From the NCBI RefSeq assembly GCF_003018235.1, contig NZ_CP027437.1: a stretch of 64,000 nt of DNA. The stretch is one strand, 5' to 3'. The stretch is from Escherichia coli. Lineage in GTDB: Bacteria; Pseudomonadota; Gammaproteobacteria; Enterobacterales; Enterobacteriaceae. The notes beneath the pieces are model-generated. The model searched no databases. It was not told the origin of the DNA and saw only the letters and a program-made list of their open reading frames with translations. Of this stretch, positions 1,381-14,337 are shown in pieces. The translations under genes were made by a program, and so were the position numbers. Numbering within the stretch: position 1 is the first letter of the stretch; each line of letters begins with the position of its first letter.

Positions 1381-2073
1381 CTAGTGATACCCACGCGCGG
1401 TCATAAAATCCGTAATCGCTTTTTCTGCATCAACCAGTACCTTTTCCAGTGGCTGATTGGCGTCGATATCAACCAGTTGTGCACCACCAAAGGTTAACTG
1501 TGGCGTTATGGCTATCTTTCTTGCCAGCGATTCCCTTTTGTGGTCAGGCTTACGCGCGCAGGCCACGTCTAGATCGACATTGAGTTTGATGACCAGATCA
1601 GGTTTATGGCTCGCCATCCAGTGAAACGCTTTACGTTCCTGGCTTGCCAGCCATGAGACAAAACGACCACCTTCAATGTTAGGTGGGAACACTGTACCAT
1701 CGTAAGCGCCAGGAATTTGGTCCTGAGGATAACGGTCGGTTAGAACAATTAACCCGCGACGACGACAGGCAAGCATATGACGAAAGCGCAGTAAGCGACG
1801 GGCGACAAACGCTGTAATTACCAGCGCCGGAACAGGGCCAGGCAATTTTTTTGCTGTTTTCACCTGATTTCGTTCAATTGTTTTATGTAAGGATTTTCCC
1901 ATCAACGGTAATTTTGTCACTGCACGACCGACATTTCCGGCCTGTTTTCCTAAATGAACTCTTTCGGCTGCACCATATTTTTCGACAACGGTAATGAGAT
2001 GTTCACACACCGTTGACTTGCCTGAACCATCGCTACCAATAACGGCAATTAATGGAGGTGTTATTGACTGCAT
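1381..2073 (-). CDS. yghT: P-loop NTPase, kinase-like (YghT family)
   Basis: 230-aa ORF with Walker [14 protein letters not shown] and a downstream LTDRYP motif resembling the DRY/DRH motif of thymidylate/nucleoside-kinase-fold enzymes; paralogous to the next two genes. Confidence 0.8.
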
Positions 2074-2246
2074 GAATATATCCTTTAATTTAAATATCCA
2101 TTAAAAATATTTATTTGGTTAATATGTTTTTATGAAAGCGTAATTCAGGTCAATGTCACAATTAACCATTGTCACAATAAGGTTGAACGGATATTCTGAG
2201 CACGGACCACGTAATATTCAATACATTATTTGCTGCCGGGTTTTTC

Positions 2247-2960
2247 GTGAATCAACGTAATATGTCAATAATTAATTCCACGCCAGTGCGTGTTATTGCC
2301 ATTGTAGGATGTGATGGTTCAGGTAAATCGACCCTCACGGCAAGCCTGGTAAATGAACTGGCAGCAAGAATGCCAACAGAACACATTTATCTCGGGCAAT
2401 CGTCCGGGCGAATTGGCGAATGGATTTCACAGCTCCCTGTTATTGGCGCACCTTTTGGGCGTTATTTGCGAAGTAAAGCGGCACATGTGCACGAAAAGCC
2501 CTCAGCACCGCCTGGCAATATTACTGCGCTGGTTATCTATCTGCTTTCCTGCTGGCGGGCGTACAAGTTTCGCAAAATGTTGTGTAAAAGCCAGCAAGGC
2601 TATCTGCTCATCACCGACCGCTACCCGCAGGTTGAAGTGCCGGGTTTTCGCTTTGATGGCCCGCAATTGGCAAAAACCACGGGCGGTAACGGTTGGATAA
2701 AAATGTTAAGGCAGCGCGAGCTGAAGCTGTACCAATGGATGGCGTCTTATTTGCCCGTATTGTTGATTCGTCTTGGCATTGATGAACAAACCGCGTTTGC
2801 GCGTAAACCTGACCACCAACTGGCAGCGTTACAGGAAAAAATCGCCGTTACGCCGCAACTGACATTCAATGGCGCAAAGATCCTTGAACTGGATGGTCGG
2901 CAACCAGCCGATGAAATTATGCAAGCGTCACTACGCGCAATTCACGCCGCGCTTTCCTGA
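2247..2960 (+). CDS. yghS: P-loop NTPase, kinase-like (YghS family)
   Basis: 237-aa ORF with Walker A IAIVGCDGSGKST and ITDRYPQ motif; clear paralog of yghT and yghR; no ABC signature (LSGGQ). Confidence 0.8.
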   Translation: MNQRNMSIINSTPVRVIAIVGCDGSGKSTLTASLVNELAARMPTEHIYLGQSSGRIGEWISQLPVIGAPFGRYLRSKAAHVHEKPSAPPGNITALVIYLLSCWRAYKFRKMLCKSQQGYLLITDRYPQVEVPGFRFDGPQLAKTTGGNGWIKMLRQRELKLYQWMASYLPVLLIRLGIDEQTAFARKPDHQLAALQEKIAVTPQLTFNGAKILELDGRQPADEIMQASLRAIHAALS

Positions 2961-2991
2961 TCACCAAAATGGATAGGGGATGATTTAACGA

Positions 2992-3748
2992 ATGGATGCA
3001 CTACAAACACAAACTGTTAAGAGTACAACCGCGCCGCAGCCCAACTACATTCCGGGGCTGATTGCGGTGGTCGGGTGTGATGGCACCGGTAAATCCACGC
3101 TGACCACCGACCTGGTGAAATCGCTGCAACAACACTGGCAAACCGAGCGGCGCTATCTGGGGCTGCTCTCCGGCGAAGACGGCGACAAAATCAAACGATT
3201 GCCGTTGGTTGGCGTCTGGCTGGAACGGCGGCTGGCGGCCAAATCCTCGAAAACCCAAAGCATGAAAACCAAATTTCCAGCGCTATGGGCGGCGGTGATT
3301 ATGTACTGCTTCTCGCTGCGAAGAATGGCGAATCTACGCAAGGTTCAGCGACTGGCGCAAAGTGGCGTTCTGGTGGTCAGCGATCGCTTCCCGCAGGCTG
3401 AAATTTCGGGCTTTTATTATGACGGACCGGGGATCGGCGTCGAACGTGCGACCGGGAAAATCAGCATGTTTCTGGCGCAGCGCGAACGGCGTTTATACCA
3501 ACAAATGGCGCTACCGTCCTGAATTAATCATTCGCCTGGGCATTGATATTGATACTGCCATCTCCCGCAAGCCTGACCATGACTATGCCGAGCTGCAGGA
3601 CAAAATCGGCGTCATGTCGACGATTGGCTATAACGGCACAAAAATTCTTGAGATTGATTCCAGAGCGCCTTACAGCGAGGTGCTGGAACAGGCACAGAAG
3701 GCGGTTTCTCTGGTTGCCATCGTTTCTGACCGCCGAAGTTTAACTTAA
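2992..3748 (+). pseudogene. yghR: P-loop NTPase paralog YghR, apparently frameshifted
   Basis: Paralog homology runs in frame 1 (ORF 2992..3522, Walker A IAVVGCDGTGKST, VSDRFPQ) and then continues in another frame (ORF 3362..3748, RPELIIRLGIDIDTAISRKPDH aligning with yghS LPVLLIRLGIDEQTAFARKPDH). The 757-nt span is not a multiple of 3. Confidence 0.55.
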
Positions 3749-3793: not shown

Positions 3794-5143
3794 TTGGCGG
3801 GTTTTAACATCAAACATTGGTTTGCAGATGGCGCGTTTCGCACCATTATTCGCAATAGCGCCTGGTTAGGCTCCAGTAATGTCGTGAGCGCCTTGCTGGG
3901 TCTGTTGGCGCTCTCGTGTGCCGGTAAAGGGATGACGCCCGCCATGTTTGGCGTACTGGTGATTGTGCAATCGTACGCCAAGTCGATCAGCGATTTTATT
4001 AAGTTTCAGACATGGCAGCTGGTGGTTCAGTACGGAACGCCAGCCTTGACCAACAATAATCCGCAGCAATTTCGCAATGTTGTCTCATTTTCCTTCTCGC
4101 TGGATATCGTCAGCGGCGCGGTGGCGATTGTCGGCGGCATTGCCTTACTGCCATTCCTTTCCCATTCATTAGGTCTGGATGACCAAAGCTTTTGGCTGGC
4201 GGCGCTCTATTGCACGCTCATTCCTTCAATGGCTTCCTCCACGCCGACCGGCATTCTGCGTGCGGTAGATCGCTTTGATTTGATTGCTGTACAGCAGGCG
4301 ACGAAACCTTTTCTGCGCGCAGCGGGGAGCGTCGTAGCCTGGTATTTTGACTTTGGTTTTGCGGGTTTTGTTATTGCCTGGTACGTGTCGAATCTGGTTG
4401 GCGGCACCATGTACTGGTGGTTTGCCGCGCGCGAATTACGCCGCAGAAATATCCATAACACCTTCAAATTGAATCTGTTTGAGTCTGCCCGACACATTAA
4501 AGGCGCGTGGAGTTTTGTCTGGTCAACCAACATTGCCCACTCCATCTGGTCGGCACGTAACTCGTGCAGCACAGTGCTGGTGGGGATCGTGTTAGGACCC
4601 GCTGCCGCCGGGTTATTTAAAATCGCCATGACATTCTTCGACGCCGCCGGAACGCCAGCGGGTTTACTGGGTAAAAGTTTTTACCCAGAGGTGATGCGTT
4701 TAGATCCGCGCACCACCAGACCGTGGTTGTTAGGCGTGAAGTCCGGTTTACTGGCGGGCGGAATCGGTATTCTGGTGGCGCTCGCGGTGTTGATCGTCGG
4801 CAAGCCGCTCATTTCGCTGGTGTTTGGCGTTAAGTATCTCGAAGCGTATGACCTGATTCAGGTGATGCTGGGCGCAATTGTGATTTCGATGCTGGGCTTC
4901 CCACAGGAGTCATTGCTATTGATGGCGGGAAAACAGCGCGCTTTTCTCGTGGCGCAAACCATCGCCTCAATCGGCTACATCGTATTGCTGTTCATGTTCT
5001 GTCATCTGTTTGGCGTGCTGGGGGCTGCATTTGCTTACTTCGCTGGGCAATGTCTGGATGTGGTGTTCTCGCTAATTCCAACCTTAAAGGCATTTTTTCA
5101 GCGCCATTCCTTGCTTTATAACGCAGCCGGAGAGAAATCCTGA
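3794..5143 (+). CDS. yghQ: Polytopic inner-membrane protein, MOP-superfamily flippase-like (YghQ); true start uncertain
   Basis: 449-aa ORF with many hydrophobic segments; I recall YghQ being annotated as a putative polysaccharide/lipid flippase. K-12 protein is shorter by my recollection, so an internal start is possible. Confidence 0.7.
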   Translation: MAGFNIKHWFADGAFRTIIRNSAWLGSSNVVSALLGLLALSCAGKGMTPAMFGVLVIVQSYAKSISDFIKFQTWQLVVQYGTPALTNNNPQQFRNVVSFSFSLDIVSGAVAIVGGIALLPFLSHSLGLDDQSFWLAALYCTLIPSMASSTPTGILRAVDRFDLIAVQQATKPFLRAAGSVVAWYFDFGFAGFVIAWYVSNLVGGTMYWWFAARELRRRNIHNTFKLNLFESARHIKGAWSFVWSTNIAHSIWSARNSCSTVLVGIVLGPAAAGLFKIAMTFFDAAGTPAGLLGKSFYPEVMRLDPRTTRPWLLGVKSGLLAGGIGILVALAVLIVGKPLISLVFGVKYLEAYDLIQVMLGAIVISMLGFPQESLLLMAGKQRAFLVAQTIASIGYIVLLFMFCHLFGVLGAAFAYFAGQCLDVVFSLIPTLKAFFQRHSLLYNAAGEKS

Positions 5144-5967
5144 TGATGAGAAAATATTTCCCGCTTGAGGCTAGCGAGCGTCTATTTGTTGCGATTGAAG
5201 AAGATGATGTCGTTGATGCACAGGTCAGTTTGCCGCCGACTATCGCACTAAGTTGTACCACCGAAATCATCCATGATAATTACGCGTTATGCCTGAAATT
5301 CTGGCTGGATGGTGTTAATCGTCAGGAGCTACTGCGTTTAATCCGCAAACAGGCGAAAGGCGATGAGCTGACGACAGACGAGCGCAAAAAGTATAAATAC
5401 ATGCGAGCGCGCTACAAGCATCTGCGCTTTGCGCAACGGCTGTATTTAAAGAAGCATCAGGCCGGATTTTTATTCGGCAAAACGACCGTTTTTTTGGGGC
5501 GTTTTCAGGACGGCTTTCGTAACGGTAAGAAAAATATTGTGTCGTATTACGGCAACCTGTTACGGGTTTATTTAAGCTCTCCGGTCTGGTCGTTGGTGAA
5601 CTATTCATTACGCCATAGCCAGTTAGAAAGCGTAAGCGGTTTTATTGCCTATCGGCAAAAGCAAATGCATACCCTGAAAGAGATAATTGCCAAACCGCGA
5701 CTAACTGGCAGGGAATTTCATGATGTGCGAAAAATCATCAGCCAGCAGGTTTCTTATTACGACACCCTAAGATCGCTTGATCCTGAAAATAAAGAGGCGT
5801 TACAGATTTCCCGCTTCCTCGCCGCCATTAATGGCCTGATGGGGGATAAACACGACGACATGGTGGCGGATGATATGGAAAACCGCCAGTCGTATGATGC
5901 ACCGGTGGCGCTGGATAGCGATATTCGCCAGCGCTTAGAGCTGCTGATTTCGCGTTTTCCGCTATAA
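5143..5967 (+). CDS. Hypothetical basic protein, 274 aa, function unknown
   Basis: ORF start overlaps the yghQ stop (TGATG), indicating translational coupling; no motif I recognise. Confidence 0.55.
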   Translation: MMRKYFPLEASERLFVAIEEDDVVDAQVSLPPTIALSCTTEIIHDNYALCLKFWLDGVNRQELLRLIRKQAKGDELTTDERKKYKYMRARYKHLRFAQRLYLKKHQAGFLFGKTTVFLGRFQDGFRNGKKNIVSYYGNLLRVYLSSPVWSLVNYSLRHSQLESVSGFIAYRQKQMHTLKEIIAKPRLTGREFHDVRKIISQQVSYYDTLRSLDPENKEALQISRFLAAINGLMGDKHDDMVADDMENRQSYDAPVALDSDIRQRLELLISRFPL

Positions 5968-5975
5968 CCGGAGCA

Positions 5976-6539
5976 ATGATGTCATCTCGTTTGATTATTG
6001 CGCTGATTATCATGCTCTTAGCCCCGGGTGTGCAGGCACACAATTTCGTCACTGGCAAAACGGTTACCCCTGTTTATATCCAGGAAGGCGGCGAGCTGCT
6101 TCTGAATAGCGACGACGAAATTCACTACCAAAAGTGGAACAGCACACAGCTGGCGGGAAAAGTTCGCATTATTCAGTATATCGCCGGGCGTAAGTCGGCG
6201 AAGAAAAAGAACTCACTGTTAATTAAAGCGGTTGAAGCGGCAAACTTTCCGCAGGATCGTTTTCAGCCCACCACCATTGTGAACACCGATGATGCCATTT
6301 TTGGTACTGGCTATTTTGTCGTTGGCAAAATCGAAAAAAATAAACGCCGCTATCCGTGGGCGCAATTCGTTATTGACGGCAATGGACAGGGACGCGTTGC
6401 CTGGCGGTTGCCGGAGCAGAGTTCAACCATTCTGGTGCTGAATAAAGCCGGGCAAATTCAGTGGGCAAAGGACGGCAGCCTGACGCCGGAAGAGGTAGAA
6501 CATGTCATTGCGCTGGCGCAGAAACTGATCAATGAATAA
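5976..6539 (+). CDS. Secreted/periplasmic YtfJ-family protein
   Basis: 187-aa ORF with N-terminal signal peptide (MMSSRLIIALIIMLLAPGVQA then HNF). Blocks TTIVNTDDAI and WAKDGSLTPEEV match my memory of E. coli YtfJ. Confidence 0.6.
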   Translation: MMSSRLIIALIIMLLAPGVQAHNFVTGKTVTPVYIQEGGELLLNSDDEIHYQKWNSTQLAGKVRIIQYIAGRKSAKKKNSLLIKAVEAANFPQDRFQPTTIVNTDDAIFGTGYFVVGKIEKNKRRYPWAQFVIDGNGQGRVAWRLPEQSSTILVLNKAGQIQWAKDGSLTPEEVEHVIALAQKLINE

Positions 6540-6569
6540 AAAATTCAAAGGATTGAGGGCGTTAGTGAG

Positions 6570-7640
6570 ATGAAGCTGGTTGAACACTACATCATGCGTG
6601 GTACGCGCCGTCTGGTGCTGATTATCGTCGGTTTTCTGATCTTTATTTTCGCCAGCTACTCCGCACAGCGTTATCTGACCGAAGCGGCAAATGGGACATT
6701 AGCTCTTGATGTTGTGCTGGATATTGTTTTCTACAAGGTGCTGATTGCACTGGAGATGTTGTTACCTGTTGGACTGTATGTGTCAGTTGGCGTGACGCTA
6801 GGGCAGATGTATACCGACTCGGAAATTACCGCTATTTCTGCGGCGGGGGGCAGTCCGGGACGCTTGTACAAAGCCGTTCTTTATCTGGCGATACCGCTAA
6901 GTATTTTTGTCACCCTTCTGTCGATGTATGGTCGTCCGTGGGCTTATGCGCAGATTTATCAACTGGAGCAACAGTCACAGTCGGAGCTGGATGTTCGCCA
7001 GTTGCGGGCAAAGAAATTTAACACTAACGATAACGGACGAATGATCCTTTCGCAGACGGTTGATCAGGATAATAATCGCCTGACTGACGCGCTGATTTAT
7101 ACTTCTACTGCCAATCGAACCCGCATTTTCCGCGCCCGTTCGGTTGATGTGGTTGACCCATCACCTGAGAAACCGACCGTTATGTTGCATAACGGGACCG
7201 CCTATCTTCTCGATCATCAGGGGCGTGACGACAACGAACAGATCTACCGTAATCTGCAATTACATCTGAATCCGCTGGATCAAAGCCCTAACGTCAAACG
7301 CAAAGCAAAATCGGTCACGGAGCTGGCGCGCTCCGCCTTTCCTGCCGATCATGCCGAACTGCAATGGCGACAAAGCCGTGGCCTGACAGCATTGTTGATG
7401 GCGCTGCTGGCCATTTCATTAAGTCGGGTAAAACCGCGGCAAGGGCGATTTTCAACGTTATTGCCACTGACGTTGCTGTTTATTGCCATTTTTTATGGCG
7501 GCGACGTCTGCCGTACGCTGGTGGCTAACGGCGCGATTCCCCTCATTCCTGGTTTGTGGTTAGTACCCGGACTCATGCTAATGGGCCTGCTGATGCTGGT
7601 CGCACGCGACTTCTCATTGCTGCAGAAATTTTCCCGATGA
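6570..7640 (+). CDS. LptF/LptG-family (YjgP/YjgQ) permease, first of a pair
   Basis: 356-aa ORF with N-terminal TM helices, an LGQMYTDSEITAISAAG block resembling LptF LGKLYTESEIT, a central soluble domain and C-terminal TM helices. Confidence 0.7.
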   Translation: MKLVEHYIMRGTRRLVLIIVGFLIFIFASYSAQRYLTEAANGTLALDVVLDIVFYKVLIALEMLLPVGLYVSVGVTLGQMYTDSEITAISAAGGSPGRLYKAVLYLAIPLSIFVTLLSMYGRPWAYAQIYQLEQQSQSELDVRQLRAKKFNTNDNGRMILSQTVDQDNNRLTDALIYTSTANRTRIFRARSVDVVDPSPEKPTVMLHNGTAYLLDHQGRDDNEQIYRNLQLHLNPLDQSPNVKRKAKSVTELARSAFPADHAELQWRQSRGLTALLMALLAISLSRVKPRQGRFSTLLPLTLLFIAIFYGGDVCRTLVANGAIPLIPGLWLVPGLMLMGLLMLVARDFSLLQKFSR

Positions 7641-8716
7641 ATGTTTTCAGTCGCTATTTAATCCGTCATCTCTTTCTCGGTTTTGCCGCCGCCGCAGGGC
7701 TATTGCTGCCGCTTTTTACCACCTTCAACCTGATTAACGAACTGGATGATGTCAGCCCGGGCGGTTATCGCTGGACTCAGGCGGTGCTGGTGGTGCTGAT
7801 GACCTTACCGCGTACACTGGTCGAACTTTCGCCGTTTATCGCATTATTGGGAGGGATTGTTGGCCTGGGGCAGTTATCGAAAAACAGTGAGCTTACCGCC
7901 ATTCGCAGCACGGGGTTTTCTATCTTCCGTATTGCACTAGTGGCGCTGGTTGCCGGGATATTGTGGACTGTTTCGTTAGGCGCGATAGATGAGTGGGTGG
8001 CGTCGCCATTGCAGCAACAGGCGCTGCAAATCAAATCGACTGCCACCGCGTTGGGGGAGGACGATGACATTACCGGCAATATGCTTTGGGCCAGGCGCGG
8101 TAATGAATTTGTGACGGTGAAATCGCTGAACGAGCAGGGCCAGCCTGTGGGCGTGGAGATATTTCATTATCGCGACGATCTCTCGCTCGAATCCTACATT
8201 TTTGCACGCAGTGCCTCCATTGAAGACGACAAAACATGGATCCTGCATGGTGTGAATCATAAAAAATGGTTGAATGGCAAGGAAACGCTGGAAACATCAG
8301 ATAATCTTGCCTGGCAATCGGCCTTCACCAGTATGAATCTTGAAGAGTTATCGATGCCGGGAAATACTTTTTCTGTCCGTCAACTTAATCATTACATCCA
8401 TTATTTGCAGGAAACTGGGCAACCCAGCAGCGAATACCGCCTTGCACTGTGGGAAAAACTGGGACAACCCATCCTGACCCTGGCGATGATTTTGCTGGCT
8501 GTGCCGTTTACCTTTAGTGCCCCGCGTTCGCCTGGGATGGGTAGCCGTCTCGCTGTAGGCGTCATCGTGGGCTTACTTACCTGGATCAGCTATCAAATCA
8601 TGGTCAATCTGGGATTGCTATTTGCGTTGAGCGCACCTGTTACCGCGCTCGGTTTACCGGTAGCGTTTGTGCTGGTGGCGTTGAGCCTGGTGTATTGGTA
8701 TGACAGACAACATTAA
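7637..8716 (+). CDS. LptF/LptG-family (YjgP/YjgQ) permease, second of a pair
   Basis: Start MNVFSRYLIRH overlaps the upstream stop (ATGA at 7637-7640); SELTAIRSTGFS block resembles LptG SELVVMQASGF; same TM - periplasmic domain - TM layout. Confidence 0.7.
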   Translation: MNVFSRYLIRHLFLGFAAAAGLLLPLFTTFNLINELDDVSPGGYRWTQAVLVVLMTLPRTLVELSPFIALLGGIVGLGQLSKNSELTAIRSTGFSIFRIALVALVAGILWTVSLGAIDEWVASPLQQQALQIKSTATALGEDDDITGNMLWARRGNEFVTVKSLNEQGQPVGVEIFHYRDDLSLESYIFARSASIEDDKTWILHGVNHKKWLNGKETLETSDNLAWQSAFTSMNLEELSMPGNTFSVRQLNHYIHYLQETGQPSSEYRLALWEKLGQPILTLAMILLAVPFTFSAPRSPGMGSRLAVGVIVGLLTWISYQIMVNLGLLFALSAPVTALGLPVAFVLVALSLVYWYDRQH

Positions 8717-8717
8717 A

Positions 8718-8744
8718 CCCGCCGTGGCGCAACACCACAGCGGG
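8718..8744. terminator. Hairpin in the 35-bp gap between the convergent permease and Spt-like genes; possible bidirectional terminator
   Basis: cccgccgtgg (8718-8727) and ccacagcggg (8735-8744) form an imperfect inverted repeat with one mismatch. Confidence 0.4.
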
Positions 8745-8750
8745 CTCACA

Positions 8751-9923
8751 TTACTGCTTCAGAGTAGCGAACGCTTGAATGATGGCATCAATTTGCTCAC
8801 GACTGTGGGCAGCGTTTACGCTACAGCGCAGCAGCGTGATGCCTGCAGGCGCGGCAGGTGGCAGGATAAGATTCACATAAACGCCCAGCGAAATAAGCTC
8901 GCGCCAGATGCGTAAACCTTCCTCTTTCGAACCGATTATTACTGGCACTACCGGGCTAATATGTGAACTTAACTCATAATCCAGTTTTTGCAGACCGTCA
9001 TACAGATGGTTGGCATTATCCATCAGCTTTTGCCGCAACTCTGGTTGTGAGACAATGGTTCTTAACGACGAGCGCACGGTCGCAATGCAGGACGGAGAAG
9101 GAGAGGCGGTAAAAATATACGGGCGGCTGCCGTAGCGCAACACTTCCATCGCTTCCGAACCGACAGCAAAACCGCCAATCGAGGCCAGGCTTTTACTGAA
9201 GGTACCAACGATAATATCCACATCATCTTCAACGCCAACGGCTTCAGCCAGTCCGCGCCCCGTTGCGCCTAACACGCCAAACGAATGCGCTTCATCGACA
9301 ATCAAATAACCACCGAGACGACGTTTGATATCAACAATTTCCGCCAGCGGCGCAACGTCACCGAGCATACTGTAGATGCCTTCAACGATGATAATCGCCT
9401 CTTTTGCCCGTTCACCGAGGCGAACCATGCGCCGTTCCAGATCTTTAGCATCGTTATGGCGGAAACGAATAATTTCCGCGCCACCGAGAGAACAGGCGTC
9501 ATAAATACTGGCGTGGCTGTCGGCATCCAGTAACACCACGGCGTTATGGTCGGCAAGTGCGCTGATGACGCCTAAATTAGCGGTATAACCGGTTGAAAAA
9601 ACGATAGCGGTAGGGCGATTAAAAAACTCGGCGATCTCTTTCTCTAACGCCAGATGCGGCGCATAACTGCCGTTTGCCATACGAGAACCGGTGGTGCCGG
9701 TGCCTTGGGCCGCTAACGCTGCCTGACCTTCGGCGATGGCATCATGATTAAAGGTTAAACCGAGATAATTATTGGTCCCGGCCAGAATCACTTTTTTATT
9801 GCCGATCCGACCTTCGGTGGCGGAATACACTTCATCAATACAGGTGCCAAACGGTGTTAACCCGTTGTCACTAAATTGCAGTCGCTCGCCAGCAAGGCGC
9901 GCATATTTATCGTATAGCCCCAT
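8751..9923 (-). CDS. PLP-dependent alpha-oxoamine synthase, serine-palmitoyltransferase-like (Spt/Kbl/BioF family)
   Basis: 390-aa ORF with the PLP-lysine motif GTFSKSLASIGGF and DEAHSFG, as in serine palmitoyltransferase and 8-amino-7-oxononanoate synthase. Confidence 0.8.
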   Translation of the reverse strand: MGLYDKYARLAGERLQFSDNGLTPFGTCIDEVYSATEGRIGNKKVILAGTNNYLGLTFNHDAIAEGQAALAAQGTGTTGSRMANGSYAPHLALEKEIAEFFNRPTAIVFSTGYTANLGVISALADHNAVVLLDADSHASIYDACSLGGAEIIRFRHNDAKDLERRMVRLGERAKEAIIIVEGIYSMLGDVAPLAEIVDIKRRLGGYLIVDEAHSFGVLGATGRGLAEAVGVEDDVDIIVGTFSKSLASIGGFAVGSEAMEVLRYGSRPYIFTASPSPSCIATVRSSLRTIVSQPELRQKLMDNANHLYDGLQKLDYELSSHISPVVPVIIGSKEEGLRIWRELISLGVYVNLILPPAAPAGITLLRCSVNAAHSREQIDAIIQAFATLKQ

Positions 9924-10171
9924 TATTTATTCTCCAGCCATGGAAGTAGTGTTTCCATTAATTGCGCAGGGGTTTTGACATCCAGCAGAATATTAATAGG
10001 AATGGAAATATCGAATCTGTCTTCCAGCATCATTAAGAGATCCATCACTTTGATCGACTCCAGGCCAAGATCGTTGACGAGATCGCTGTCGGGCTTAATT
10101 TCCACACCGTTTTCGACCAAATCCTGTAAACAGGAAAGGATGTAATCCATTACTATTTCACGATTTACCAT
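9923..10171 (-). CDS. Acyl carrier protein
   Basis: 82-aa acidic ORF with phosphopantetheine-attachment motif DLGLESIKVMDL; its stop overlaps the Spt start (TAATG). Confidence 0.75.
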   Translation of the reverse strand: MVNREIVMDYILSCLQDLVENGVEIKPDSDLVNDLGLESIKVMDLLMMLEDRFDISIPINILLDVKTPAQLMETLLPWLENK

Positions 10172-10202
10172 AGAAACGTTAACACACCTTTAAACAAGAC
10201 AA

Positions 10203-11117
10203 TCAAAATAGCCCGTTGCGTAATGCGTGTTCCAGGCTAATCCCGGGAAACCAATTAATATCTTCAGAAATACGGTTATTACTTGCCGACCAGTCGGCAT
10301 GAGTTAATTCACGGATTTTCGAACGAGTCAGCATCGGTTCTTTACCCGCCAGACGGCTCAACGCGGTACTGATATCCGCAAGGCAGGTGAGTAGCGGCAG
10401 AGGAATACCGACCATCCGCACGGAACCGCAACGGGCGTCGGCGGCAAGCTGTCTTACGCGTTGCCAGTCATAGCCTCCGGCGACGCCATCGCATAATTCA
10501 TAGGTTTGCGTCTGTACAGTTTCGGCGCTTAACCACTGACCCACTGCTTGCGCAAAATCGGTGACGTGAAGAAAAGAGAGCTGTGTCTCTGGCGTGCCAA
10601 GTCGTGGCAGCAGGCCGCGCAGCATCCAGTCAAACAGCGGTTTTAACTCTTTATCGCCGGGACCATACACGGCTGTCGGGCGAAAAACGCCCAGCGTAAT
10701 TTCATCAGCCATTGCAGTCAGCCGTTGTTCGGCGACGTGTTTGGAATTTGCGTACCAGGAGAGTTCGGGATGGCGCGCCGCCAGCGAAGAGATAAACAGA
10801 AAACGTTGGCAAAAGCCGCTCTCTTTTGCCGCTTGCATCAGGCGCAGGCTGCCGTCAACGTTACAGCGGGTAAAAATCTCTTCTTTGTGTCCGCGCACTT
10901 GTCCGGCGCAATGGACCACCGCGCTGGCTCCGGCAACCAGTTCGCTAAGCGAATGTGTATCTTCCAGCGAACCGCGCACCCAGATGAGATTATCATTGAC
11001 GTGAGCGCGGGCAGTACGCGTCAATGCGCGAACGTGAAAGCCGCGGGCGAGCAGGTTATCGATAATATATTTACCGATAAACCCGGTAGCGCCCGTCACC
11101 GCGACAGTTTGATTCAT
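10203..11117 (-). CDS. NAD(P)-dependent epimerase/dehydratase-family (extended SDR) reductase, CerR-like
   Basis: 304-aa ORF with N-terminal Rossmann motif VTGATGFIG and catalytic YxxxK (YANSK). Confidence 0.75.
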   Translation of the reverse strand: MNQTVAVTGATGFIGKYIIDNLLARGFHVRALTRTARAHVNDNLIWVRGSLEDTHSLSELVAGASAVVHCAGQVRGHKEEIFTRCNVDGSLRLMQAAKESGFCQRFLFISSLAARHPELSWYANSKHVAEQRLTAMADEITLGVFRPTAVYGPGDKELKPLFDWMLRGLLPRLGTPETQLSFLHVTDFAQAVGQWLSAETVQTQTYELCDGVAGGYDWQRVRQLAADARCGSVRMVGIPLPLLTCLADISTALSRLAGKEPMLTRSKIRELTHADWSASNNRISEDINWFPGISLEHALRNGLF

Positions 11118-12823
11118 GCCAGGGATTCCTGCACATGAAGGCTTGCAGCATAACGTTTTTTCGCTTCCGCACGGGCAGGCTTGCCGGAGGACGTTCGGGG
11201 AATACTGTGGGGCGGCAACAGATCGATAGCCGCTGTTACGCCAAATTCGCTTTGGATCCGTGCTACCAGTGCGTGGATAAGCTGCCCACGACGTTCTTCG
11301 TCGCTGATCCTACACTGGATCTGCAGAATGATTTTTTCCTGGGCGGTAACAAAAGCAATCGCATCGCCAGAATGAATTTCCGGTTCCTGTTCCGCAATAT
11401 ATTCAATATCCTGCGGCCAGATATTACGGCCACGAATAATAATCAGATCTTTAATGCGTCCGGTGACATACAGATAACCGTCCAGCAGATAACCGAGGTC
11501 GCCGGTGTCTAACCAGCCCGTCGCGGCAATCTCGTCTTGTGAAATCTGGTCGCCAAAGTAACCGCTCATCAGGCTAGGGCCGGAGATGCAAATATGGCCT
11601 ACCACACGTTCCGCGACAGGTATACCTGCTTCATTGCGGATTTCAATGCCATGTTCCGGCAACGCTTTACCGCAGTTGACGAAAGTCGATACGGCGCGTG
11701 TTTCAGCATCCGGCGCGACGGCTTTGCCCTGATATTCGAGGATGTCGCGATCCACTTCGTTAACCACAACCCCGGAAGCTTCATCAGAGAAGCTGACAGC
11801 CAGCGCATTTTCTGCCAGTCCGTAGCACGGCATGAAAGTTTTATCGTCAAAGTTGACCTGACGGAAACATTCAGCGAATTGATGGAGTTGTTCTGCGGAG
11901 ATGGGTTCTGCACCAATACCAGCGACGCGCCAGCAGGAAAGATCCAGTTCAGCGAGATCTTTTTCATTCACGCGGCGCTGGCACAATTCATAGCCAAACG
12001 GCGGCGCAACGGAAACGGTGCCGCGATTTTTACTGATCAATTTAAGCCATTGCAGAGGACGCATGGCAAAATCCTGAGTGCGCAAATAATCTACTGAAAG
12101 CTGCGTGGCGACGGGGGGCAGGAGAAAGCCGACCAGTCCCATATCATGGTAGAAAGGCAGCCAGGAGACGCAGCGGTCGCCAGGGCGTAATTTAATGCCA
12201 TCGTGGCTTATAGCACGTAGATTAGCCATCACTTCGCGATGGGTGATAATGACGCCACGGGGAAAACGGGTGCTGCCGGAGGTGTACTGGAGGTAGGCGA
12301 TATCGTTCGGAACTGGACGCTGGAGCGCAACATCGGCTTCCGGTAATGCCTTAAACCAGGCGTGGCTTAAAACATGTAATTCGGGGTTGTTATGCGTAGC
12401 GGCATTGACCAGTGGCAACCACTCATCACCAGTGATAATGGCTGCGGGCTGGCAACTTGCCAGTAAACCCTGCAGTTTGGCGCTCCAGGAATCCCGCTGA
12501 CCGACGCCCATTGGAATCGCCAACGGGACGGCGACTAAGCCGGCATACTGGCAGGAAAAAAAAGCCTCTACGAACCCGCTACTGGTTTCGGCAATCAGCG
12601 CCACGCGATCGCCTTTTTTCAGGTTCAGCGATAACAACCGCTTCGCACCAGCTTCGGCACGCGCTTTTAACGTCTGATATTCCAGTTGATCTTCAAGTTG
12701 GCAACGTCTGTCATAAAAATTCATTCCGGCGCTACTCAGAGCGGCGTAGTCCAAAGCATCAACCAGCGTTGGAAAATCGGCATAGCGCATAGGTAGGGAA
12801 TGCGTAAAGATTTTATTAGACAT
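11114..12823 (-). CDS. Fatty-acyl-AMP ligase / acyl-ACP synthetase (AMP-binding superfamily)
   Basis: Adenylation motifs YTSGSTRFPRGV and TGDLGY...GRIKDLIIIRGRNI; stop overlaps the reductase start (ATGA). Start taken at the ATG for MSNKIF; the ORF track extends to 12850 on a TTG. Confidence 0.8.
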   Translation of the reverse strand: MSNKIFTHSLPMRYADFPTLVDALDYAALSSAGMNFYDRRCQLEDQLEYQTLKARAEAGAKRLLSLNLKKGDRVALIAETSSGFVEAFFSCQYAGLVAVPLAIPMGVGQRDSWSAKLQGLLASCQPAAIITGDEWLPLVNAATHNNPELHVLSHAWFKALPEADVALQRPVPNDIAYLQYTSGSTRFPRGVIITHREVMANLRAISHDGIKLRPGDRCVSWLPFYHDMGLVGFLLPPVATQLSVDYLRTQDFAMRPLQWLKLISKNRGTVSVAPPFGYELCQRRVNEKDLAELDLSCWRVAGIGAEPISAEQLHQFAECFRQVNFDDKTFMPCYGLAENALAVSFSDEASGVVVNEVDRDILEYQGKAVAPDAETRAVSTFVNCGKALPEHGIEIRNEAGIPVAERVVGHICISGPSLMSGYFGDQISQDEIAATGWLDTGDLGYLLDGYLYVTGRIKDLIIIRGRNIWPQDIEYIAEQEPEIHSGDAIAFVTAQEKIILQIQCRISDEERRGQLIHALVARIQSEFGVTAAIDLLPPHSIPRTSSGKPARAEAKKRYAASLHVQESLA

Positions 12824-13194
12824 ATACACCACGAAAAAATTGGATATCAAAAATAAAATGACAATAATGCGGTGGATTATATAGGCATAAAAGATAAATG
12901 AGATAGTATTTTCATCAGTGTGAAAATGAACATTGATTTAAATAATGAGTTTGAGTTTTTTTGTTTTTATTGTGAATGATATTTAATTTATGAATGTATT
13001 AAGAAGAAGCCTTGTCCGGTCGCCTTAAATCGACAAAAGGCATTGTGGCGCTTCTGTGTAGTCTCTGACCTTATCGTAATCATTAATAAATGCTATTTAT
13101 TCGTCGTTTGTATTCATTGGGTTGATTATTAAGGTGCCGTTCGTTGCTGTTGCAACCTGTTTGTCACCGTTAATTATTTGTTACCCACAGAACT
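12824..13194. promoter_or_regulatory. AT-rich divergent control region between the lipid operon (-) and yghO (+)
   Basis: ~370 bp of visibly AT-rich non-coding DNA with A/T tracts between two divergently oriented starts; typical of divergent promoters and H-NS-bound regions. No specific site identified. Confidence 0.45.
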
Positions 13195-14337
13195 ATGGAA
13201 TGCGATCTGCTGATGATTAAAATTGAAAAAGTAATTAATAAAAATGACCTTAAGGCATTTATCGCTTTTCCGTCATCACTTTATCCCGACGATCCAAACT
13301 GGATACCCCCTTTATTCATTGAACGCAACGAGCATTTGTCTGCGAAAAATCCGGGGACGGACCATATCATCTGGCAGGCGTGGGTGGCAAAAAAAGCCGG
13401 GCAGATAGTTGGGCGAATTACCGCGCAAATCGATACCTTGCACCGTGAGCGTTACGGTGAAGATACCGGTCATTTCGGCATGATTGACGCCATTGATGAT
13501 CCGCAGGTTTTTGCCGCGTTGTTTGGCGCAGCGGAAGCGTGGTTGAAGTCACAAGGAGCAAGTAAGATCAGCGGGCCTTTCAGCCTGAATATCAATCAGG
13601 AAAGCGGATTACTGATTGAAGGTTTCGATACACCACCCTGTGCGATGATGCCGCACGGTAAACCGTGGTATGCCGCGCATATTGAACAATTGGGTTATCA
13701 CAAAGGCATTGATTTACTGGCGTGGTGGATGCAGCGAACCGATCTCACTTTCTCTCCGGCGCTAAAAAAACTGATGGATCAGGTGCGTAAGAAGGTGACC
13801 ATTCGCTGCATCAATCGCCAGCGGTTTGCCGAAGAGATGCAGATCCTGCGTGAGATTTTCAACTCTGGCTGGCAGCACAACTGGGGATTTGTGCCGTTTA
13901 CCGAACATGAATTCGCGACCATGGGCGATCAACTTAAATATCTGGTGCCGGACGATATGATCTACATCGCTGAGATTGATTCTGCACCCTGCGCGTTTAT
14001 TGTCGGCTTGCCAAACATCAACGAGGCGATTGCCGATCTGAACGGATCGCTCTTTCCCTTCGGCTGGGCAAAATTGCTGTGGCGTTTAAAAGTCAGCGGT
14101 GTGCGAACTGCGCGAGTACCGCTGATGGGCGTGCGGGACGAGTATCAGTTTAGCCGCATCGGCCCGGTGATTGCGCTGTTATTGATTGAAGCCTTACGCG
14201 ATCCGTTTGCCCGCCGGAAGATCGATGCGCTGGAAATGTCATGGATCCTCGAAACCAATACAGGCATGAATAACATGCTGGAACGCATTGGGGCGGAGCC
14301 GTACAAGCGTTACCGATTGTATGAAAAGCAGATTTAA
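13195..14337 (+). CDS. yghO: YghO, candidate N-acyltransferase (possibly GNAT-like), intact here
   Basis: 380-aa ORF next to glcC, which is where yghO sits in E. coli. The acyltransferase assignment is from recollection of annotation and context, not from a motif I can verify. Start could be M7 (MIKIEKV). Confidence 0.65.
   Translation: MECDLLMIKIEKVINKNDLKAFIAFPSSLYPDDPNWIPPLFIERNEHLSAKNPGTDHIIWQAWVAKKAGQIVGRITAQIDTLHRERYGEDTGHFGMIDAIDDPQVFAALFGAAEAWLKSQGASKISGPFSLNINQESGLLIEGFDTPPCAMMPHGKPWYAAHIEQLGYHKGIDLLAWWMQRTDLTFSPALKKLMDQVRKKVTIRCINRQRFAEEMQILREIFNSGWQHNWGFVPFTEHEFATMGDQLKYLVPDDMIYIAEIDSAPCAFIVGLPNINEAIADLNGSLFPFGWAKLLWRLKVSGVRTARVPLMGVRDEYQFSRIGPVIALLLIEALRDPFARRKIDALEMSWILETNTGMNNMLERIGAEPYKRYRLYEKQI

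Follow-up and report, generated by a model that had tools for sequence, protein, structure and literature searches.

Within the window (the whole stretch of E. coli DNA analysed here, 64,000 nucleotides), yghO is an uninterrupted open reading frame of 380 codons on the + strand, running from an ATG at 13195 to a stop at 14337. In E. coli genomes with 99.9% identity across the locus it carries the RefSeq name 'protein YghO', and RefSeq places glcC on one side of it and, on the other, a divergent gene for a 'fatty acyl-AMP ligase'. The features of the cluster to which we refer below are as follows.

3794–5143, + strand: yghQ, flippase of the MOP family (cut short by IS5 in K-12)
5143–5967, + strand: CHAD-like protein, 274 aa, all-helical
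5976–6539, + strand: YtfJ-family protein with a signal-like sequence at its N-terminus (TIGR01626, 212 bits)
6570–8716, + strand: LptF-like (6570–7640) and LptG-like (7637–8716) second-copy permeases (RefSeq)
8751–9923, − strand: serine palmitoyltransferase, Spt (NCBIfam NF047599, 595 bits, cutoff 500)
9923–10171, − strand: specialised acyl carrier protein, AcpR (ECD_02853 in PMC9386255)
10203–11117, − strand: NAD(P)-dependent SDR/epimerase-family reductase, homologue of CC_1164 (CerR, 3-keto reductase)
11114–12823, − strand: fatty acyl-AMP ligase (FAAL), AasR-type acyl-ACP synthetase, ECD_02851 homologue (NCBIfam NF006624, 867 bits; RefSeq)
12824–13194, no strand: AT-rich intergenic spacer between the divergent aasR (FAAL) and yghO, 371 bp, 32.1% GC
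13195–14337, + strand: yghO, predicted tandem-GNAT N-acyltransferase of the bCerS (CC_1154) family, 380 aa

A preliminary description of this DNA had claimed a full-length yghO of 380 aa that shares an AT-rich region of some 370 bp with the biosynthetic operon, and both claims hold: the reading frame is intact, and the 371-bp spacer has a GC content of 32.1%, compared with 51.8% for the window as a whole. The spacer presumably carries both promoters and acts as a shared control region. A scan for the sigma-70 consensus found two sites in it, no excess over shuffled sequences (3.0 ± 2.0), and an Rfam search of the spacer found no family. Most YghO orthologues are 374 aa long and begin at the position of M7, and both the 374-aa and the 380-aa forms have been deposited for E. 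coli; the better conserved ATG at 13213 may therefore be the true start, giving a 374-aa product.

Several of the neighbouring genes have been studied. In E. coli BL21 the activity of Spt has been demonstrated, AasR has been found to acylate AcpR, and the reductase gene, ECD_02852, has been named epi (all PMC9386255). The one unannotated protein of the cluster, of 274 aa, was considered as a rival acyltransferase and ruled out by its CHAD-like helical fold. The CerR-like SDR begins MNQTVAVTGATGFIG; a Rossmann motif as early as residue 8 leaves no space for a signal peptide. Caulobacter CerR, on the other hand, is a periplasmic protein according to PMC11087976, and the two organisms may thus differ in the compartment of this step and, with it, in the order of the reactions.

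Prevalence in E. coli and loss from K-12

Among 5426 complete E. coli genomes, a 1.8-kb query spanning the locus found matches in 4558, and 4062 (about 75%) keep at least 80% of the 10.5-kb cluster. K-12 is different: in MG1655 (L087 6147–7341) an IS5 element (insH9) replaces 8.4 kb, positions 4863–13234 of the window, such that the K-12 sequence aligns up to 4862 and then again from 13235. The replacement removes the first 13 codons of yghO, the spacer, the FAAL and SDR genes, acpR and spt, together with the LptF/G-like, YtfJ-like and CHAD-like genes and the 3' part of yghQ. What is left of yghO in MG1655 (b2981) abuts the IS5 and is annotated 'putative DNA-binding transcriptional regulator YghO'.

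Fold of YghO

Searches of Pfam, NCBIfam and the PDB (phmmer) with the single YghO sequence returned no matches, and its relationship to the GNATs emerged only through profiles and structure. Clustering at 50% identity divides this large family into 6489 clusters, nearly all members being 370–400 aa long and aligned end to end. AlphaFold2, given an 88-sequence alignment, produced a model with a mean pLDDT of 97.3, a pTM of 0.93 and a pLDDT of at least 90 at each residue, in which two GNAT domains account for the entire chain. The structures that match it best are themselves GNATs: MAB_4324 (match score 23.8), the glucosamine N-acetyltransferase GlmA (22.7), clavulanate ORF14 (20.9), mycothiol synthase MshD (20.3) and Eis (about 17), followed by N-myristoyltransferase (15.6) and FemX (14.5). 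The GNAT fold that had been proposed as a possibility in the preliminary description is thus predicted with high confidence, and the FemAB-like (Acetyltransf_6) alternative offered with it falls away, a Fem-type protein being neither the nearest structural nor the nearest profile match.

The family profile aligns with GNATs in the PDB over residues 305–379, which comprise beta4-alpha3 and motif B, and nine of the 88 family members reach the Pfam family Acetyltransf_1 at E ≤ 0.001. From this we place the acyl-thioester site most likely in the C-terminal half of YghO. YghO has the hallmarks of the GNAT superfamily in the fold itself, the beta4-alpha3 pyrophosphate-binding loop and the Asn of motif B (Asn349), which is invariant across the family. 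The corresponding loop of the N-terminal half is acidic (DDPQ), and this half probably does not bind CoA. No segment of TM-grade hydrophobicity is present (maximum KD19 1.36).

These results bear directly on the legacy label of the K-12 gene, according to which YghO would be a DNA-binding transcriptional regulator of the operon from which it diverges. A divergent arrangement is typical of local regulators, and beyond this the label draws on the K-12 annotation string and its propagated copies. With two GNAT domains filling the chain, and no DNA-binding domain (HTH, wHTH, RHH and the like) found by Pfam or NCBIfam, the doubt that had been cast on the label was well placed, and we regard a regulatory role as effectively refuted. 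Relatives of the YghO model in AFDB50 have near-identical folds (TM 0.95–0.99) but inconsistent names in UniProt/AFDB ('DNA-binding protein', 'N-acetyltransferase', 'dATP pyrophosphohydrolase'). None of these relatives is named a ceramide synthase, which indicates that annotation lags the literature; the regulator label persists by propagation.

Relationship to bacterial ceramide synthase

Caulobacter CC_1154 (CCNA_01212; bCerS), one of five Caulobacter genes needed for dihydroceramide, converts 3-oxo-sphinganine or sphinganine into N-acyl products (supplement of PMC11324152). In a published BLAST table it is 44% identical to yghO of E. coli BL21(DE3), ECD_02850, over 98% of its length (E = 1e-107; PMC9386255). 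We supplemented this with a transitive check through Neut_1100 (ABI59355.1), the Nitrosomonas eutropha orthologue of CC_1154 (100% coverage, E = 5e-105; PMC11324152, Table S2D), to which YghO is 50% identical over its full length (E = 2e-140). In N. eutropha, Neut_1100 is followed by a nucleotidyltransferase gene (Neut_1101) and then by the LptF/G-like genes Neut_1102/1103 (PMC11324152, Table S2D). The N. eutropha locus in our own set (L069) has the same order downstream of its YghO homologue (P0273), which falls in the same 90% cluster as ABI59355.1. By the published table and this transitive check, the comparison with Caulobacter bCerS proposed in the preliminary description finds the two proteins homologous from end to end.

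Genomic context across bacteria

One genome per species was scanned with a 13-sequence alignment, yielding 80 homologue loci from Enterobacterales, Pseudomonas, Nitrosomonas, Nitrospira, Gemmatimonadota, Desulfobacterota and Alphaproteobacteria, which were searched for cluster genes with the E. coli proteins of the cluster as tblastn queries. Spt and FAAL are present at 11 of the 12 loci whose YghO homologue is at least 70% identical to YghO. Below 70% identity, relatives of Spt, FAAL or LptF/G lie within the flank at 58 of 68 loci, or at 40 of 43 when only loci with full flanks (± 10 kb) are counted. LptF/G relatives adjoin YghO homologues in 50 of the 80 loci, across phyla, and in 30 FAAL and YghO are again divergent. 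In Serratia liquefaciens, too, the YghO orthologue diverges from FAAL-SDR-ACP-Spt, with a different opposite flank; a 43%-identical family member sits in an ACP-Spt-YghO operon, and a 50%-identical relative is followed by a nucleotidyltransferase gene and then an LptF/LptG pair.

Two gene fusions tie the family to lipid enzymes. P0191 (940 aa, L088 8001–10823) joins a YghO-like domain to a FAAL that is 31% identical to that of E. coli (E = 5e-76), and P0132 (630 aa, L089 8001–9893) has a fatty-acid hydroxylase domain (Pfam E = 1.1e-18) fused with a YghO-like one. The P0191 gene adjoins one for an MGDG-synthase-type glycosyltransferase, and a third protein, P0121 (784 aa), is a tandem double YghO. 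Directly downstream of the S. liquefaciens yghO orthologue lies a gene for a DgkA-type (DAGK_prokar) lipid kinase (L002/L003 11354–11716); in E. coli this position holds glcC and no DgkA-type gene.

No cluster gene was found near 10 of the 68 distant loci. Shimwellia pseudoproteus carries a second YghO copy, 75% identical (L014 10001–11152), between der/bamB and an enterochelin-esterase-like gene with a fused ABC exporter (a siderophore-type cluster), and no sphingolipid genes were found within 10 kb of it. The substrate cannot therefore be read from family membership alone, and not all members need be ceramide synthases.

Proposed role and alternatives

Taking together the fold, family membership, synteny and fusions established here, we conclude that YghO very probably acts as the ceramide synthase of a sphingolipid pathway encoded on the E. 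coli chromosome; the earlier suggestion that it is a candidate N-acyltransferase of the bCerS kind draws support from all four. Others have shown that the E. coli proteins Spt, AcpR and AasR are active and that Caulobacter bCerS carries out N-acylation. TLC of BL21 overexpressing Spt/AcpR/AasR gave indirect evidence of ceramide-like spots (PMC9386255). For YghO we infer the substrate, the acyl donor (acyl-CoA or acyl-AcpR), the reaction order and the export route. AasR would load a fatty acid onto AcpR, and Spt would condense acyl-AcpR with serine to give 3-ketosphinganine. YghO, as a soluble or peripheral cytoplasmic tandem-GNAT enzyme, would then N-acylate 3-ketosphinganine, or sphinganine if the SDR acts first in reducing the 3-keto group. 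In such an enzyme the C-terminal GNAT half would bind the long-chain acyl thioester, and the amino group of the sphingoid base might be held in the cleft between the halves, which would be lined by the family-invariant loop W-x-x-N-W-G-F-x-P. The product would be moved to the outer membrane by YghQ (as flippase) and the LptF/G paralogues; the occurrence of this second LptF/G pair and its linkage to YghO homologues across phyla suggest a dedicated sphingolipid export route, for which the pair at 6570–8716 is the candidate exporter.

The nearest solved structures to YghO acetylate sugars or small molecules, not lipids, and YghO could be a GNAT for some non-lipid acceptor (a protein lysine, an aminoglycoside, an amino sugar or a thiol, as for Eis, GlmA and MshD) that stands beside the lipid operon by position only. 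We consider this quite improbable, given that YghO is a full-length homologue of a characterised bCerS, that its synteny with spt/aasR/lptFG is kept across phyla, and that YghO-like domains are fused to FAAL and to a fatty-acid hydroxylase. As for protein lysines, a lysine acetyltransferase screen of 25 GNATs that included the K-12 yghO allele showed no acetyl-lysine bands for it, though that allele is N-terminally altered.

A second alternative keeps YghO in the pathway and gives it a variant reaction, with acyl-AcpR as donor or with another amine or intermediate as acceptor, and a product other than a classical ceramide. The natural YghO–FAAL fusion favours such a reading, as does the L089 fusion gene, which is followed by ACP and ketosynthase genes and not by Spt. 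Relatives of the Caulobacter head-group genes CC_1152/1153 and CC_1159–1161 are also missing from the E. coli cluster, so the end product probably differs. Even so, 44% identity to CC_1154 over 98% of its length usually implies the same chemistry, and Spt, AcpR, AasR, the SDR and YghO correspond to the five Caulobacter genes required for dihydroceramide; a variant reaction is in our view unlikely, and we retain the ceramide-synthase assignment.

The head group itself is another matter. Relatives of the head-group genes Neut_1101 and Neut_1104–1106 were sought in the window and none was found, which, with the missing Caulobacter relatives, makes the kinases YghR/S/T candidates for a different head-group chemistry. 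Their genes (yghT, yghS and yghR, 1381–3748) are three paralogous P-loop, dTMP-kinase-like genes flanking the cluster, homologues of which directly adjoin spt in Serratia (L002 2379–4980). In the present strain yghR (2992–3748, + strand) appears frameshifted: residues 1–173 and 168–252 of the intact 252-aa YghR of strain EFF60 are encoded in two frames around 3491–3522.

Relation to earlier work and implications

The assignment of YghO as a ceramide synthase has been published before. Padilla-Gomez et al. (2022; PMC9386255) listed yghO (ECD_02850) by homology, together with CC_1154, as the N-acyltransferase 'aca', and noted that five sphingolipid genes lie together in both C. crescentus and E. 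coli BL21; conceptually, the present claim adds nothing to theirs. In the literature searched, theirs was the sole paper linking yghO to sphingolipids, and the ISME J supplements searched mention neither Escherichia nor Serratia. The same search found no direct enzyme assay of E. coli YghO, no lipidomics of a yghO mutant and no report of a native sphingolipid in E. coli. What the present analysis contributes is a high-confidence tandem-GNAT model, a count of synteny across phyla, two Rosetta-stone fusions, the exact boundaries of the K-12 deletion, a figure for prevalence, and the exclusion of the lone unannotated neighbour as a rival. Among current database labels, 'protein YghO', 'DNA-binding transcriptional regulator' and 'dATP pyrophosphohydrolase' are outdated and should give way to 'bCerS-family N-acyltransferase'.

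It is conceivable, if somewhat short of probable, that most natural E. coli (about 75% of complete genomes) and many other Enterobacterales have a latent capacity to produce an outer-membrane lipid of the ceramide type. This lipid would be synthesised by YghO and exported by YghQ together with the second LptF/G pair. In its head group it would depart from Caulobacter ceramide phosphoglycerate, since the phosphoglycerate genes are absent and the P-loop kinase-like YghR/S/T and the CHAD-like protein are present. The lipid biology of E. coli has largely been defined in K-12, a strain without the operon. Two things could explain why such a lipid was overlooked: the IS5 event that cost K-12 the operon, and possible silence of the AT-rich promoter region under laboratory conditions. 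Should YghO and its neighbours function in wild strains, a sphingolipid pathway would have gone unrecognised in the best-studied of all bacteria, a matter of relevance to the biology of the outer membrane and perhaps to interaction with the host.

Comparison with known systems

The tandem-repeat GNATs of known structure, namely MAB_4324 of M. abscessus (7q3a), GlmA of C. acetobutylicum (5kf1), clavulanate ORF14 (2wpw), MshD (1ozp) and Eis, share just 13–17% sequence identity with YghO. Their acceptors are sugars, thiols or aminoglycosides, and the group transferred is acetyl or an acyl group of about that length, whereas the role proposed for YghO is the transfer of a long acyl chain to a lipid amine. 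N-myristoyltransferase (2p6e) is a weaker structural match and a eukaryotic enzyme, with a protein N-terminal glycine as its acceptor. In that enzyme it is the N-terminal half that binds acyl-CoA.

The eukaryotic ceramide synthases (Lag1/CerS, TLC domain) catalyse the reaction proposed for YghO, N-acylation of a sphingoid base. They are integral membrane proteins (PMC11087976) that have no homology to YghO, which is without a TM segment; YghO is an analogue of these enzymes by convergence. A Lag1/TLC-type identity for YghO itself was ruled out, there being no Pfam match of any kind and no TM-grade segment.

The closest likeness is to Caulobacter bCerS and its family. The Caulobacter genes for the phosphoglycerate head group are missing from the E. 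coli cluster, and the arrangement differs, in that the Caulobacter bCerS gene lies eight genes away, beside lptF2/G2, whereas yghO divergently adjoins the aasR-cerR-acpR-spt operon. Caulobacter LptF2/LptG2 (CC_1155/CC_1156) are nonetheless paralleled by the second LptF/LptG-like pair inside the E. coli cluster. YghO shares with the family a GNAT-type fold, a similar size (374–386 aa in YghO and Neut_1100) and a soluble or peripheral character with no TM segment, and its gene, too, is linked to spt, acpR, aasR, a cerR-like SDR and paralogues of lptF/G.
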